A DNA stretch of 64,000 bases from Candidatus Tectimicrobiota bacterium (GTDB lineage: Bacteria; JACPUC01), in assembly GCA_016192455.1 (NCBI GenBank), contig JACPUC010000009.1, positions 1-64,000 on the forward strand. Reading direction: 5' to 3'. Positions within the stretch are counted from its first letter, which is position 1, and every line of letters begins with the position of its first letter. The notes beneath the pieces were generated by a model. That model was given only the letters and a program-made list of their open reading frames with translations. It was not told the DNA's origin and did no database searches. Position numbers and translations under genes: made by a program. Of this stretch, positions 51,101 to 57,256 are shown piece by piece.

Positions 51101-53851
51101 TCACACCGCGTACACCTTCAATACCTCGTCGCCGTAATGGTTGATGACCTTGATGGCGATCTTGCCGGTCTCCGGGGGGTCGAAGGGGCGGCTGGTGGTG
51201 CTGTAGAGGCTGGCCCAGGCGGCCTCGTCGATCTCCGCGCGCAGGGCGCGTTTCAGCTTGTCGTACGGCTCCTCGGCGCCGGTGAAGTAGGCGTGCCGCA
51301 CGAAGAAGCTCTCCTCGTCGTAGTTGGTGTCGATGAACCAGCAGGCGATGTCGTCGGTCGAGGAGGTGCGAATCTGCCCCGTGGTCGGGTCGTAGACATC
51401 CAGGCCCTTGATCGCAACGACGAACTGATCCGCGGATTTCACAGATTCGCGCAGATTTCTCTTATCTGTGGTCATCTGCGTCATCTGTGGATGAATTCTC
51501 CGAATTTCCACGTCCGGCTCGCCGAAGACCATGAAGAGGTTGGCGGCGCCGCTCTTCTTCAGCAGCTCCTCCCCCATCATCAGGTCGGGGTTCATGCGCG
51601 TCACCAGCACCGTCAGGTCGCCGTAGCGTTTCGCCTCCTCGGAGACGTGCGGGTCGAAGGCGAAGCCGCACACCACCAGCACGTCGAATCGCACCCCCTG
51701 CAGCGCCTCCTTCGCCGCCTCGTGGATGTGCTCCGCTCCCACCGTGCCGTGCTCGGGGCCGATGGAGACGGCCACGCGCTTGCTGGCGCCGTCACTGCCG
51801 GCGTACTCCCCGGCGGCCTGCAGCCAGCGGCCGGCGAACGGCTCCAGGCGCTCGAAGCGCAGGCGCTCGGCCTTGCGGGTGTTCTGCACGCCGGCCTTCT
51901 TGAGGTTGTCCAGGATCATAACGGCGAAATCATCCACGGATTTCACAGATGAACGCCGATAATTCTTAGGGGTATCCGCAGATTGCACAGATGAACACAG
52001 ATGGGTTGAACCCTTCTTCTTCTCATCGGTGTCCTCCGTGGATAACGTTCTGTGCGGCGACAGGCTCTCGACGGTGAACGGCCCGGCGACGCGCGCCCGC
52101 GAGCTGTCTGGGTACGGCTGGTCGTAGAGGGTCTCCTGATCGGCGTGGCGGGTAATGGCGGCGTCGATCTCGGCGCGCGTCATCCCCTCGCGGATGTCGG
52201 GGTTGTTGGCGATGGATTTCAGCGTCACGTGCGGCACGCGCTTGTAGACGAACCCCTTGCGGATGTCGGGAAGGGAGCTATCCACAGAGGACACAGAAGG
52301 CACAGATTTTCGCAGATAGTTTTTGATCTCTTCATCTGTGTTCATCGGTGTAATCTGTGGATAGGCATCGGCGAGGTAATAGTAGGGATATTTAGCGGCC
52401 ATCAGGCGCGTGCGCGCCAGGGCCAGGGCCACGCGGCTGGTGTCGATGGTGATCCAGCGCCGCCCCCATTGCTCGGCGACGTAGGCCGTCGTGCCGCTGC
52501 CGCAGGTGGGGTCCAACACGAGGTCGCCGGGGTCGGTGGTCATGAGGAGGCAGCGGGAAACGACATCGGTATTTGTTTGAACTGCATAAATCTTCGCCTC
52601 TCCGAAACCGCCTGCACGCACATCATCCCAGTAATTCGATATTCTTACTACCGGATAGTCATCCGCAAACATTTTGTAACGAAGATACTTGCCAGAGACA
52701 ATAAGCCTATTTGCAGTTTCTAACTTTCGCATTCCCTCTTTAGTAGTTCGCCAGTAATATCCAGGTAACGGGCTAAACTTGTACCCTTGAAATTCGTAGA
52801 TAAAATGTGTTGTCTTTCCACCACTGTCAGAATATATACTGCTTGGCATAAATCGCTTGCCTATAAGTTGATTTGATTCGAGGTTTTCTGAACGTGTTAG
52901 CCTTCTACATGATCCATCAATTGATTCGATCATTGTGTAAGCTGCTTCTATAGTGGTTGACTTCCGAAGGATATAAAGTGAACGAACCTTAGTATGTTCT
53001 GTAGACTTAGAATACCAAATAAGGTAATCACCCGAAGAATCTATATGACCACTGCCCTTACCAGTGGTTTTAAGAAAGAAAATCAGCCCGCAGAAATTCT
53101 CACTCCCAAACACCTCATCCATCAAACACCGCACGAGGTGCACATTCTCATCCCCAATCTGCACGAAGACGCTGCCCGTCTCCGTCAGCAGCTCGCGCGC
53201 CGCCACCAGCCTATCCCGCAGGTAGGCCAGGTAGGAGTGAATCCCCAGCTTCCAGGTGTCGCGGAAGGCCCTGATCTGTTCCGGCTCGCGGCTGGCGTCC
53301 TCGGCCTTGCCGTCTTTCACGTCGCGCTTGCGGGTGCTCACCTGCCAGTTGGAGCCGAACTTGATGCCGTAGGGGGGGTCGAGGTAGATCGTCTGCACCT
53401 TCCCCTTCAGCCCCTCCTTCTCCGCCAGGCTGGTCATGACGAGGAGCGAGTCGCCGAGGATCATGCGGTTCGACCAGTTGGCGTCGTACTGGTAGAACTC
53501 CACCTTCTTGTCGAACCCGTCGATGCCGTTGAAGTCGGCGAAGAGGTCGAGCTGCTCCTGTTTCGGTTTGCCGCCGCGCCGCCGCAGGTCCTCGATGAGC
53601 GCCTGGGGGTGAATCTTCTCCTGGATGTAGACCGGCGCCACCGGCACGGCGAGGTCTTCGCGGTCCTGCTCGTCTTTCCCCTTCCAGACGAGCTGCGGGT
53701 CAAGCGACGGGTCGCGCGGGTAGAGCATGGTTCGCGGCGCCGCCTCCTCCTCGGCCACGAAGCCGCGCAGCTCCTCGGTGGGGATGTTGCGCCGCTTGTC
53801 CTTGTGGCGCAGGGACTCGACACTGGTCATCCTGGTGTTCTTTTTGGCCAT
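51101..53851 (-). CDS. Type III-like DNA methyltransferase (Mod), beta-class, containing three in-frame palindrome clusters
   Basis: NRMILGDSL, YLDPPYGIKF, VLDPTCGSGTT, KVINHYGDE; repeat-derived peptides such as HPQMTQMTTD and NLRESVKSAD. Confidence 0.9.
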   Translation of the reverse strand: MAKKNTRMTSVESLRHKDKRRNIPTEELRGFVAEEEAAPRTMLYPRDPSLDPQLVWKGKDEQDREDLAVPVAPVYIQEKIHPQALIEDLRRRGGKPKQEQLDLFADFNGIDGFDKKVEFYQYDANWSNRMILGDSLLVMTSLAEKEGLKGKVQTIYLDPPYGIKFGSNWQVSTRKRDVKDGKAEDASREPEQIRAFRDTWKLGIHSYLAYLRDRLVAARELLTETGSVFVQIGDENVHLVRCLMDEVFGSENFCGLIFFLKTTGKGSGHIDSSGDYLIWYSKSTEHTKVRSLYILRKSTTIEAAYTMIESIDGSCRRLTRSENLESNQLIGKRFMPSSIYSDSGGKTTHFIYEFQGYKFSPLPGYYWRTTKEGMRKLETANRLIVSGKYLRYKMFADDYPVVRISNYWDDVRAGGFGEAKIYAVQTNTDVVSRCLLMTTDPGDLVLDPTCGSGTTAYVAEQWGRRWITIDTSRVALALARTRLMAAKYPYYYLADAYPQITPMNTDEEIKNYLRKSVPSVSSVDSSLPDIRKGFVYKRVPHVTLKSIANNPDIREGMTRAEIDAAITRHADQETLYDQPYPDSSRARVAGPFTVESLSPHRTLSTEDTDEKKKGSTHLCSSVQSADTPKNYRRSSVKSVDDFAVMILDNLKKAGVQNTRKAERLRFERLEPFAGRWLQAAGEYAGSDGASKRVAVSIGPEHGTVGAEHIHEAAKEALQGVRFDVLVVCGFAFDPHVSEEAKRYGDLTVLVTRMNPDLMMGEELLKKSGAANLFMVFGEPDVEIRRIHPQMTQMTTDKRNLRESVKSADQFVVAIKGLDVYDPTTGQIRTSSTDDIACWFIDTNYDEESFFVRHAYFTGAEEPYDKLKRALRAEIDEAAWASLYSTTSRPFDPPETGKIAIKVINHYGDEVLKVYAV
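51428..51492. repeat. CAGAT-arm inverted pair inside the methyltransferase
   Basis: atccgcggatttcacagattcgcgcagat ... atctgtggtcatctgcgtcatctgtggat. Confidence 0.9.
51932..52043. repeat. CAGAT-arm cluster (two direct arms, one shorter inverted arm) inside the methyltransferase
   Basis: 51932-51960 atccacggatttcacagatgaacgccgat; 51974-52002 atccgcagattgcacagatgaacacagat; 52025-52043 atcggtgtcctccgtggat. Confidence 0.9.
52279..52363. repeat. CAGAT-arm inverted pair inside the methyltransferase
   Basis: tatccacagaggacacagaaggcacagattttcgcagat ... atctgtgttcatcggtgtaatctgtggata. Confidence 0.9.
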
Positions 53852-53965
53852 GATTCAATCCGCCGATTGCGCCGATTTGCGCAGATTCAGGGACTCGACT
53901 TTGGTCGTCCTGGTGTTCTTTTTGGCCATGATTCAATCCGCCGATTGCGCAGATTTGCGCAGATT
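53810..53965. repeat. 78-bp tandem duplication (mod 5' end plus one CAGAT arm)
   Basis: 53810-53887 versus 53888-53965, 4 mismatches. Confidence 0.95.
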
Positions 53966-54361
53966 GGAGAATACAAAACGCCTAAATTCAAGACTCGGGC
54001 GGCCGAAGTTCAGCAGCAACCCGCGCTCCAGGCGTGTTGCCTTGAGGTAGTTCAAGAGCTGTGCTTCCTCGACGCCAGTGATGGCGTGCAGCGCCTTCAA
54101 CTCGATGATAACGCTTTCATAGCAGACAAAATCCGCCCGGTACGAGCAGGCCAGCGGCTGCTCCTTATAATACACCGGCAACTCCACTTCGCGCGCGAAC
54201 GGAATGGCTCGGACCGCGAATTCAATCGCGAGCGCCTGCTGGTAGACAGCCTCCAGGAATCCCGGGCCAAGTTCTCGATGAACCTCCATCGCCGCGCCGA
54301 TGACGGCGTGTGTTTGTTGGTCCTTTGAATCTGCGTCAATCTGCGAAATCCGCGGATTCAT
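53933..54361 (-). CDS. GxxExxY protein (PD-(D/E)XK nuclease fold) bounded by 31-bp inverted repeats
   Basis: VIGAAMEVHRELGPGFLEAVYQ, RADFV...IIELKA, QLLNYLKAT, GLLLNFG; inverted repeats at 53935-53965 and 54328-54358. Confidence 0.93.
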   Translation of the reverse strand: MNPRISQIDADSKDQQTHAVIGAAMEVHRELGPGFLEAVYQQALAIEFAVRAIPFAREVELPVYYKEQPLACSYRADFVCYESVIIELKALHAITGVEEAQLLNYLKATRLERGLLLNFGRPSLEFRRFVFSNLRKSAQSAD

Positions 54362-57256
54362 TTTTGCTCACCGATAAAGCCGCGGATGAGAGTTTGCGCG
54401 TTCCACGGGTCGGTGATCTCGATGAACGCCCAGCGCCCGAAGCCGCCGTGGTTGTTGACCGCCGGCGCCCACAGGTTGCGCGCCGTACTCACCTTCGCCT
54501 CCTTCTCGGCCCTTCGCTCACCCGTCACCTCGATGATGAGGTTCAGCAGGTCGTCCGGCCCGCGGCCGTCGTCGACGCGGGCGATGAAATCGGGATGGTA
54601 CTGCTTCTCCTCGTTGAAGAGCGTGTAGGGGATCGTGAAGCCGAGGTTCTGGTTCTTCACGTAGGCGGCGACCTCCTCCATCTCCTCCAGGCTCTCGGCC
54701 ATCTTCTGCTCCCAGGAGCCGGTGTCGGCCACCACGTGCGACACATGGCATTTGTCGGGGCGGGTGTCGTAGGTGCTGCGCCGCGTGGTGAAATCGACGT
54801 AGCGGGTCGAGCCGAGGGTGTCGTAGGGGTGCAGGATCGGCTTCAGGCGCGGCTCGCCGCCGGAGGAGGCAACGATGGCCCGGTAGACGCGGTCGGCGGC
54901 GTCGTGCGCCCACTCGACGAGCAGGAGGAGCTGCGGGAAGGTGTTGTCATGGCAGGTGACGCATTCATCCAGCCAACGCTTGGTGATGCCGAGCACCTGC
55001 GGGAAGAGCCAGGGCTTGTCGTTGCCGTCATCGTCGCGAAAGTATTTCTCCAGCGTCAGCTTTCCCAGAAGGAAGGCGACCTCGTTCATGCGCCTGCGCT
55101 TCAGGTCGTCCAGGGTGAGGATGACGGTCTCCCCCACGATAGGGGCGTTCTCGGTCTTCGTCGGCAGGTCGTGCGTGCTCAGGGTGAGGTTCGAGTCCTC
55201 CGTGAACATGGCGCTGAGGCGCTGCGTGGGCAGATCGTAGCGGTACCCGAGCAGGCGCGGGAAGGTGATCTCGCAGGCGATGCGCTCCTCCAGGGCGCGC
55301 ACGCGGGTGGTCTGCCGCCCCGGCTGCGGTCCCTTCGTTGAGCCGGAGCAGGGGATGAAATCGAAGGGGACGCCGTAGACCTCGGCATACTCCGGCTCGA
55401 AGCAGCCGTCGTCGTTCAGGGCGTAATCCATGCGGCGCAGCGCCCGGCCCACCACCTGCTCGCAGAGGAGCTGCGTGCCGAAGGCGCGCACGCCGAGGAT
55501 GTGGGTCACGGTGTTCGCGTCCCAGCCCTCGGTGAGCATGGAGACGCTGACCACGCAGCTTCTCGGGGTCGCGCCCCGGAAAGCGCTGGCGGTACTCCGC
55601 CTTGAACTCCTCGATCTCCCTGGCGGCGATCTTCTTGAACTCGGCGCTCATGCCCTCGCCGGATTCAAGCTGCTGGCTGTCCACGAGGATGGTGTTGGGA
55701 CGGCGCAGCCAGCCGCCGCGGCCGTCGTCGTTGCGGAAGAACTTCAGGTTGCCGGCTTGCACCAACGTCGTGTCCCCGAGCGGCTTTTCCCAGCCGGCGA
55801 TGTAGTCGAACACCAACTTCGAGACGTTCGTGTTGTTGCAGACGACGATGAAGACAGGCGGGGTGAGGTTCGTAGCCGTGGCCGTCGAGCTTGCTTCCCA
55901 CAGGCGGTAGTACTGCTCATAGTTGCCGTAGAGGCTTTGCAGCGCCCCTTCCAGCTCCTTGGGAAGCTGCGGTTCGCCCACCACCGCCTCGGTCTTGCGG
56001 CCTTTGCGAGGCAGGTGTTCGCGGATCCGCGGCCAGAGGTTGCGGTAGGTGGGCTGCTCGCCAATCATGGAGTCATCCGCCACCGGCACGCGCGGCACCT
56101 TGACGATGCCTGATTCGATGGCGTCGATGAGGGAAAAGTCCGAAACCACCCAGGGAAAGAGCGTCCCCTCCTTGTAGCCGGAGCCGCGCAGGAAGAAGGG
56201 GGTGGCCGAGAGGTCGTAGATGACCTTGGCGCCGAGTTTCGCCTTCACCGCCTCAAGGCCGGAAATCCAGACGCGCGCCTCCTCGTTGCGCGTCTCCGCT
56301 TCCCTGCGTTCGTCGCTGCTCAGTTTCTCCTCATCGGTTTCGGGACGGCGCCGGTAGCAATGGTGCGCCTCATCGTTGAGAACGACGATGTTCTTTTTGC
56401 CGCCGAGCTCGCGGCAGGCGCGCCGCACCATCTGCTGAGGCGTTTCGGTGAACGCTCCATCGGCGCCCTGGGCGAGAATCGCCTTGGTGAGTTTGCCGGC
56501 GGCGACCTTCTCCCGCGGTTGGAAGGCGTGGAAGTTCGTGATGATGATCTTGGCCTGCTCCAGCCGTTCCATCTGGTGAGCCGGCAGGAGGTCCCACTGG
56601 CGGTAGTAGTTGTTGGGGTCGTTCGGCAGCAACACGCGCAGGCGGTCGCGCACGGTGATGCCGGGGGTGACGATGAGGAAGGTGTCGGAGAAGAGCTTAC
56701 CCTGGCGATCGGCCAGCTTGTTCAGCATGTGCCAGGCGATGAGCATGGCCATGACGACGGTCTTTCCGGTGCCGGTGGCCATCTTCATGGCGAGGCGCGG
56801 CAGGCCGGGGTTGGCCGCGTCGTTGGCGTCGCGCAGGTGGTTCGCAAGCCATTCGTCGCCGCACTTCGCCGCCGCCTCGGTGAGGTAGATGACCGTCTCA
56901 ACCGCCTCAATCTGGCAGAAGAAGAGCTTTGTATCGCGCTCGGGGTTGGTCCAGTACTTCAGCAGCTCGCGGGTCGTCGAGGTGATGCCGTGGTACTTCC
57001 CCCGCCGCCACAGGGCGACGCGCTCAGGGATGCGGTTGACGGTCTGGTTCTCTTCAAGACGGTCTTTCGTCCATTCGCCGTAGAGGTCGAGCTGCTTGCC
57101 GCGCTTCCTGGGCCGCGGCACCGGCACGAAGTAGGCGCTGCTGCGCCGTTCCTCGATGATCTCGTCGGTAATGCCGTCGTCGTCGAACTTGAAGTGGCGC
57201 CGCGGCTCCGCAAAGGGAGAGTTGAGGATGGGGTTTTCGATGACGACTGGAGGCAT
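54358..57256 (-). pseudogene. Type III-like restriction helicase-nuclease (Res), split by a deletion/frameshift at ~55558
   Basis: N-terminal part FFCQIEA, MATGTGKT, NDEAHHCY, DLSATP; C-terminal part CVVSVSMLTEGWD, QVVGRALRR, YHPDFI...EVTG in another frame. Confidence 0.88.

Follow-up and report, generated by a model that had tools for sequence, protein, structure and literature searches.

A genuine 78-bp tandem duplication at the outer boundary of a GxxExxY cassette, possibly a scar of DNA repair

Why does the start of a DNA methyltransferase gene stand twice beside a small nuclease-like gene? We addressed this question in a 64,000-nucleotide (nt) stretch of the genome of Candidatus Tectimicrobiota bacterium (GenBank assembly GCA_016192455.1, contig JACPUC010000009.1, positions 1 to 64,000), which we call the window and to which all coordinates without a contig or locus label refer. 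The minus strand of the window carries a type III-like restriction-modification (R-M) pair, with a small gene of the GxxExxY family wedged between a res-like gene and mod. Inverted copies of a short repeat, the arms, bracket the GxxExxY gene to form a cassette, and where the cassette meets mod the arm and the first codons of mod are present in two tandem copies. This 78-bp tandem duplication is genuine and lineage-specific, and it lies at the outer boundary of the GxxExxY cassette. We give about an even chance to the explanation that it is a repair scar, produced when a stem-loop formed by the paired arms was broken, copied from the sister, and rejoined without homology or by a template switch.

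A repeat search placed the two copies (repeat family D1) at 53810-53887 and 53888-53965, identical at 74 of 78 positions (95%), and Tandem Repeats Finder (TRF), run on the whole genome, recovers it with a period of 78, 2.0 copies, 94% matches, and a score of 284. Start-to-start spacing equals the unit length of 78, so that the copies are directly adjacent, as slipped-strand duplication would leave them, and the four mismatches fall at 53822/53900, 53823/53901, 53829/53907, and 53872/53950. Read on the minus strand, each unit opens with a 31-nt arm, continues with GAATC, and closes with the first 42 nt of mod, the last two making up 47 nt of flank. The GxxExxY open reading frame (ORF) terminates in FSNLRKSAQSAD, and the first arm, A1, is followed by GAATC; a mini-ORF encoding MAKKNTRTTKVESLNLRKSAQSAD then runs into the second arm, A2, after which GAATC recurs and mod begins with MAKKNTRMTSVESLRH. 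An initial annotation made from the sequence alone had described two 78-bp units with four mismatches and the order GxxExxY, arm, TGA, mini-ORF, second arm, and real mod start, and the repeat searches, the sequence, and the ORF list agree with it on both counts. A search of the window for the 31-nt arm with up to 3 mismatches gave two matches, and none of 100 shuffled sequences gave any.

The inner end of the arm, as set by pairing with the left arm at 54326-54358 (inverted repeats I1/I4), is also where the repeat has its left end (53965), and an automated measurement put the junction of the array 1 nt from it, in line with the breakpoint first proposed. No microhomology was found at the joint, where the unit end TCCCTG faces the pre-array sequence TTCTCC and the unit start AATCTG faces the post-array sequence CGCCAC, with the caveat that the 5% divergence between the units could have erased a short homology. 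Microhomology models were rejected as they stand, in that pairing of the arm start with mod codons 13-15, at TCC or CTGCGC, would give a unit of 75 or 72 nt instead of the 78 nt observed.

To ask whether the duplication is real we used Logan contigs, built from 31-letter words, of four sequencing runs (X1 to X4). These runs are four samples of a single groundwater study, possibly the source of the assembly, and they serve to exclude an assembler artefact and carry no weight as independent biology. A 95-nt contig matching 53843-53937 with zero differing letters is present in all four runs and covers the copy-specific position 53872, the junction between 53887 and 53888, and the copy-specific positions 53900, 53901, and 53907. 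Its depth in X1 to X4 was 8.9, 5.7, 2.7, and 12.2, compared with 10.6/10.6, 4.51/5.17, 4.5/5.6, and 16.3/13.4 for the contigs on either side. A base specific to unit 2 is thus joined to bases specific to unit 1 at near-flank depth in every run, which upholds the original view that this is no simple assembly duplicate and supplies, in the form of read-derived contigs from one study, the junction-spanning support suggested as its check. Runs X5 to X20, with small shares of 0.06 to 0.09, form no part of this evidence. A minority single-copy form would be compatible with these contigs because the copies share an identical core of 42 nt, longer than the 31-letter words.

The gene inside the cassette is a clear member of its family, matching PF13366 (E 4.1e-41, 140.5 bits where the cut-off is 22, over profile positions 2 to 117 of 117) and TIGR04256 (149 bits against a cut-off of 35, profile positions 2-116 of 116). 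The class is defined by the motif G-x-x-E-x-x-Y plus a D...E-x-K core. Both the motif and this nuclease core are present in the translation (GFLEAVY, then ADFVCY...IELK and RADFVCYESVIIELKA), and no solved structure matches the protein by sequence. Its arms are each made of three phased heptamers of the ATCNGYG type (CGCAGAT-type in the other orientation), and the inverted repeat I1 pairs 54326-54358 with 53857-53889 over 33 nt at 85% complementarity. In the predicted RNA fold, by both the minimum-energy and the centroid structure (z = -3.1), the left arm pairs with A1 and not with A2, enclosing the gene in a long stem. The res stop overlaps the GxxExxY start as ATGA. In this genome, a metagenome-assembled bin of 4.46 Mb in 31 contigs (88% complete, 2.3% contamination), phased three-heptamer arrays number 123 and fall into two sequence families, but there are only 3 GxxExxY genes; many of the arms are abutting inverted pairs without a gene, such as C1:320225-320277, C22:87629-87680, and many on contig C23.

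We hypothesize that the duplication arose in one step from the cassette's own secondary structure. The two arms would pair into a stem that holds the gene in its loop, and a break or replication stall would occur where stem gives way to loop, at the inner end of the arm. Repair from the sister copy would then synthesize through the arm and 47 nt into mod, and the new end would be rejoined to the broken end, itself starting with the arm, either without homology or through a template switch, giving gene-A-h47-A-h47-mod, with A the arm and h47 the flank. The break could be made by a host hairpin nuclease or by the cassette's own intact PD-(D/E)XK-fold protein. The position of the break and the lack of homology are read from the sequence, and we infer the remaining steps.

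If arms direct such events, they should be linked to tandem duplications elsewhere, and the results bear this out in part. TRF found 47 tandem repeats of period at least 30 in this genome, 6 with arms and 41 arm free, and 23 of the 123 three-heptamer arms lie within tandem repeats, compared with 0.34 expected from the 12.4 kb that the repeats cover (an enrichment of ∼67-fold). For GxxExxY loci in other genomes, the 80 listed among 378 relatives, we used self-BLAST because TRF missed arrays such as that of locus L083. Direct repeats of at least 40 nt and at least 80% identity touched the zone of the gene ±300 nt (79.6 kb) in 19 of the 80 loci, and had both copies in the far flanks (171.6 kb, twice as long) in 3 of 80, all of them extensions of the same arrays. 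Searching genomes G041, G042, G044, and G045 for patterns of close direct arm pairs returned only the array of L057, which was already known.

We then measured the junctions with one script across 237 regions, made up of the 160 loci retrieved, 17 further regions with close direct arm pairs, and every arm neighbourhood of this genome. Twenty-two tandem, arm-containing arrays with a lag of 30 to 300 were obtained, and the expectation was that of junctions placed uniformly within the unit. Junctions lay within 3 nt of the inner end of an arm in 6 of 22 arrays (2.5 expected, simulated P of 0.03), within 3 nt of the outer end in another 6 (2.6 expected, P of 0.04), and thus within 3 nt of either end in 12 of 22 (5.0 expected, P of about 0.001). 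The arm pattern misses variant heptamers, so that the junction of L083 scores 14 nt from an arm by script and at most 5 nt by eye; the script value was the one counted. The layout seen in the window, a solo arm with its outer flank in a unit that starts at the inner end, is shared by L087, L183, C23:54744-54955 of this genome, and, by eye, L083. L087 has 147-nt units joined as CTG/AATC, as in the window, without microhomology. At C23:54744-54955 an 86-nt unit is present 2.5 times and is built of the last ∼45 nt of an upstream host gene (stop included), a spacer, and one solo arm from the second family; the junction is 3 nt from the inner end, there is no microhomology, and the array mirrors the duplication in the window. 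The units of L083 are 76 nt long. Looking for breakpoints at arms in other loci, as the initial annotation advised, returned a positive if incomplete answer, with the same geometry recurring and arm ends overused, but with the remaining junctions elsewhere and no close direct arm pairs in G044.

Several of our own results weigh against a repair scar. Ten of the 22 junctions are away from arm ends, and the array of the window, considered by itself, would have its junction within 3 nt of an inner end with a chance of 0.09. The 22 arrays are not independent and come from few genomes (five from this one, seven from G043), and BLAST alignment ends are drawn to the conserved arms, which makes the junction P values optimistic. 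Microhomology of 4 to 6 nt, which fits ordinary slippage, bounds the arrays of L183 (42-nt units, 100% identical, 4 to 5 nt) and L082 (three units of 43 to 44 nt, joint at the outer end, bounded by ATGAAA), the junctions of L023 are away from arms with 2 to 3 nt of microhomology, and the G043 arrays are mosaics with the arm in mid-unit. In G044, the genome of L033, the arm-end pattern has 385 matches and zero direct pairs 33 to 94 nt apart, unlike this genome and G043; given so many arms without close direct pairs, arms do not give rise to duplications in every genome. A search of this genome for a Ku gene (PF02735) came back empty, which at 88% completeness does not show its absence, and homology-free joining would therefore need another route. 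Nor was a pre-duplication allele seen, there being no near relative among the 41 genomes searched and no mod homologue above 82% identity in the metagenome scan. The view of the duplication as a footprint of arm-directed copying or recombination is accordingly only partly sustained, by the enrichment of arms and the inner-end breakpoint, with the junctions elsewhere and the microhomology of L082 and L183 on the other side. Separately, we observed that genomes differ strongly in how readily their arms form tandem arrays, G044 being unlike this genome and G043.

The simplest alternative is an ordinary spontaneous tandem duplication, by slippage or unequal sister exchange, that happened to start at the arm, so that the arm played no part. 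Small tandem duplications are common, as the 41 arm-free repeats attest, the inner-end coincidence is not negligible for a unit of 78 nt, and the scattered junctions, the microhomology-bounded arrays, and G044 all speak for it. It leaves the lack of microhomology in the window, the ∼67-fold over-representation of arms in tandem repeats, the excess of junctions at arm ends, and the recurrence of the geometry in L087, L183, C23:54744, and L083 without an account, and we regard it as unlikely. An artefact of assembly or strain mixing might be suspected in a metagenome bin of 31 contigs with 2.3% contamination whose supporting runs come from one study, possibly the source, but the 31-letter words that link 53872 to 53900-53907 in all four runs at near-flank depth, and four mismatches that rule out a collapsed or expanded exact repeat, render it scarcely credible. 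It is very improbable, too, that the mini-ORF is a selected leader or coupling peptide controlling mod expression. It is open and closely spaced between its neighbours, starting 5 nt after the GxxExxY stop and ending 5 nt before the mod ATG, but such properties follow automatically from duplicating a 26-codon unit; it has no family match, the start region is repeated at none of 75 mod loci, and the upstream res is broken.

A bolder alternative invokes the cassette's own mobility, such that the GxxExxY nuclease would cut a palindromic site at its dyad, where the inner ends of the arms meet, the gene would be copied in from a donor by homing-like break repair, and synthesis overrunning into the donor's mod start would be end-joined. 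Unit 1 would then be donor derived and the four mismatches would reflect donor-recipient divergence, not age; a duplication in situ would be told from a donor-derived unit by a one-unit allele as opposed to an allele with the mod start MAKKNTRTTKVES beside the same cassette. The gene-less hairpins of this genome, with arms abutting at their inner ends, have the layout expected of empty sites, res-cassette-mod loci (L097 and L148) make a donor with a mod flank conceivable, and residues T8 and K10 of the mini-ORF are commoner in the mod family than M8 and S10 of the real mod. The nuclease gene is also intact, and GxxExxY proteins up to 82% identical in other phyla fit transfer. Set against this, activity of GxxExxY proteins is absent from the portions of the literature available to us, 3 GxxExxY genes serve at least 123 arms in this genome, the nearest relatives (80 to 82%) occur in other contexts and those in res-mod loci reach 73% and 61% identity, a set of three substitutions is too small to tell donor divergence from drift, and the breakpoints of cassette deletion or duplication in L017 and L023 are not at arm ends. 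We consider this explanation distinctly unlikely, but if it were true, the duplication in the window, together with L087, L183, C23:54744, and L083, would map the cleavage site of an undescribed selfish element found in multiple phyla.

Returning to the repair scar, its product was probably neutral. The real mod start keeps an identical 36 nt upstream (arm plus GAATC), and therefore expression of mod need not change; the sole addition is a 24-codon ORF. This mini-ORF, which has no NCBIfam match, we read as a by-product of the duplication without sign of conservation. Its residues T8 and K10 occur in 9 and 15 of 70 members of the mod family, and M8 and S10 of the real mod in 1 and 3 of 70. Of 75 homologous mod loci that offer at least 350 nt of upstream sequence, none repeats the mod start region there (control value in the window 44.5, threshold 18), and as far as these comparisons of sequence reach the duplication is specific to the lineage and not a feature of the family. 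Translational coupling to mod, which the mini-ORF had been proposed to preserve, is kept in the trivial sense that the unit brings its own TGAATCATG joint, but the gene upstream is itself broken.

A further proposal, that such a duplication is an intermediate by which arms enter coding sequence in frame, did not hold. Compared with homologues, mod contains arm-derived in-frame insertions at three places. Hairpins occupy 51431-51489 (complete and without a gene) and 52301-52359, and 51935-52002 holds two direct arms 42 nt apart. No duplicated flank was found beside any of the three, and there is thus no need for a duplication as intermediate; we rejected it as the route, as the in-frame arms of mod are plain insertions and the duplication itself is missing from all 75 homologous loci. 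In the first of these hairpins the residues IHPQMTQMTTDKRNLRESVKSA stand in place of a short loop of the homologues, and together the insertions explain most of the ∼40 extra residues of the 916-amino-acid (aa) mod (866 to 884 aa in most homologues checked). The protein is 73 to 82% identical over its first 250 aa to 80 metagenome homologues, and its C terminus is conserved to the stop.

The res-like partner has fared differently. Two overlapping ORFs in different frames cover it, 55028..57256 (742 aa, ResIII E 9e-11) and 54358..55554 (398 aa), and homologous Res proteins (L092, L099, L114, and L140) follow frame 1 as far as 55541 and pick up frame 2 at 55557, with a gap of ∼20 residues. The break at 55541-55557 on the minus strand is a frame shift between PGRDPEKL and (C)VVSVSMLTEGW. 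With res broken, mod is therefore probably left as a solitary methylase whose R-M partner is dead, as judged from the reading frames. The features of the locus are collected in Table 1.

TABLE 1 Features of the R-M locus and the GxxExxY cassette in the window
Feature	Coordinates	Strand	Evidence
res-like helicase/endonuclease gene, broken	54358..57256	minus	ResIII domain and homologue alignments
Left arm (reverse complement of arm), in first codons of GxxExxY ORF (MNPRISQIDADS)	54326..54358	minus	Inverted repeat I1, three phased heptamers
GxxExxY / PDDEXK_3 gene, 142 aa, intact	53933..54361	minus	PF13366, TIGR04256
Right arm A1, three AATCNGCGN units, codes NLRKSAQSAD then TGA	53935..53965	minus	Sequence and arm pattern search
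Tandem unit 1: A1, GAATC, copy of mod codons 1-14	53888..53965	minus	Repeat search (D1), TRF
Mini-ORF, 24 codons: mod codons 1-14 running into arm A2	53855..53929	minus	ORF list
Right arm copy A2, one mismatch relative to A1	53857..53887	minus	Arm pattern search
Tandem unit 2: A2, GAATC, true mod codons 1-14	53810..53887	minus	Repeat search (D1); junction bridged by 95-nt contig
mod (N6/N4 DNA methyltransferase), 916 aa, open throughout	51101..53851	minus	PF01555 E 1.2e-27
Gene-less hairpin (both arms), in frame within mod	51431..51489	minus	Comparison with homologues

No near relative of the genome was found among the 41 genomes searched, all related to it at the level of the same domain only. 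The GxxExxY relatives listed span many phyla, with identities of up to 82%, and the closest of those listed (80 to 82%) occupy gene contexts other than res-mod. Of 80 homologous R-M loci, 2 have a GxxExxY gene between their res and mod genes, L097 (73% identical) and L148 (61%), and the res-mod joint may be a recurrent landing site for these cassettes. In these two loci (L097 1860-2500 and L148 880-1340) we observed the gene at the res-mod joint itself, and in L097 a 19-nt partial arm repeat stands just before the mod ATG. The second GxxExxY gene of this genome, at C27:144600-145180, shows yet another layout, in which an outward-facing arm pair (arm, AAACCTAG, and reverse arm) stands twice after the right arm, the two copies being ∼120 nt apart and ∼94% identical by eye. 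In the portions of the literature available to us we found no printed description of the repeats or mobility of the cassette and no known activity for any GxxExxY protein, only passing mentions of the family.

Duplicated host sequence beside cassettes also takes larger forms. In L013, L015, and L016 (at about 1150-2240), ∼270 to 290 nt of the start of the downstream gene are present on both sides of the cassette at 89 to 92% identity. These loci and L023 belong to related delta-proteobacterial-type bins, in which the upstream copy of the host gene is truncated or frameshifted and decaying, and between genomes of this set the upstream copies are 87 to 91% identical, compared with 92 to 95% for the downstream copies. 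In L023 a piece of host gene is duplicated beside the cassette, along with tandem units carrying an internally deleted cassette. Integration of a circle (Campbell type) could explain the host repeats of L013, L015, and L016; we rejected it for the window, where a 78-bp circle is not credible. L032 has a 186-nt repeat, made of a gene 3' end and a hairpin, on both sides of the gene and not resolvable as a clear host-gene duplication. Four further arrays of this genome (C7:216665-217080, C23:74373-74940, C26:30073-30758, and C27:2848-3555) are mosaic tandem arrays with periods of 172 to 240 nt, resembling bacterial interspersed mosaic elements (BIMEs), in which palindromic modules of other kinds are interleaved with arms of the second family (10-nt phase, CACNGAT heptamers).

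The duplication is of modest interest, one of several with joints at arm ends above chance, and by itself it does not amount to a new system. What it offers is a clue to where widespread GxxExxY cassettes break, namely at the boundaries of their arms, as the 12 of 22 junctions against 5.0 expected suggest. It also shows that cassettes can leave behind decaying copies of the starts of neighbouring genes, which gene callers may report as small ORFs or alternative starts.

Among known systems, transposon target-site duplications come to mind, in that host sequence beside a mobile-looking element is directly repeated. Here, however, both copies lie 3' of the cassette, each with an arm, and 47 nt of host DNA is far beyond the usual length of such duplications, as is the host repeat of ∼270 to 290 nt in L013, L015, and L016. 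The short homology at the edges of the array that slipped-strand duplication would leave is likewise missing. Rickettsia palindromic elements are repeats inserted in frame in genes, and the gene-less hairpins that lie in frame within mod without breaking it resemble them; by our own reading of the window, the arms are open in all six frames. The Rickettsia elements differ in sequence family and host range, a cargo-bearing form exists here, and the likeness concerns the insertions in mod, not the duplication.

In layout, by analogy only, the cassette recalls a homing endonuclease gene, in that a small nuclease gene interrupts a palindromic site of which empty copies are present elsewhere. Homing by break repair, if synthesis overran and the ends were joined, would give exactly such a duplication. 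The homology arms, however, would be only ∼30 nt, and no GxxExxY protein is known to cleave DNA, to have a target, or to home. The closest parallel is with the repetitive extragenic palindromic (REP) sequences and BIMEs of enterobacteria and pseudomonads and their REP-associated tyrosine transposases (RAYTs), which are likewise short, dispersed, imperfect palindromes at intergenic joints and form mosaic tandem arrays with other palindromic modules, as at C7:216665, C23:74373, C26:30073, and C27:2848 of this genome and in G043. REPs were reportedly found at the joints of tandem duplications by Shyamala et al. in 1990. The gene of the cassette is unlike a RAYT in that it encodes a PD-(D/E)XK-fold protein inside the palindrome, not a Y1 HUH transposase beside it (no search for RAYTs was made in this genome). 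According to the portion of the report available to us, REPs occur at some E. coli duplication junctions, with less than full-length homology, and are not preferentially used (PMC1428787). The arms studied here are three phased heptamers and not a REP stem, and, unlike the REPs in that portion of the report, they are strongly enriched in tandem repeats.

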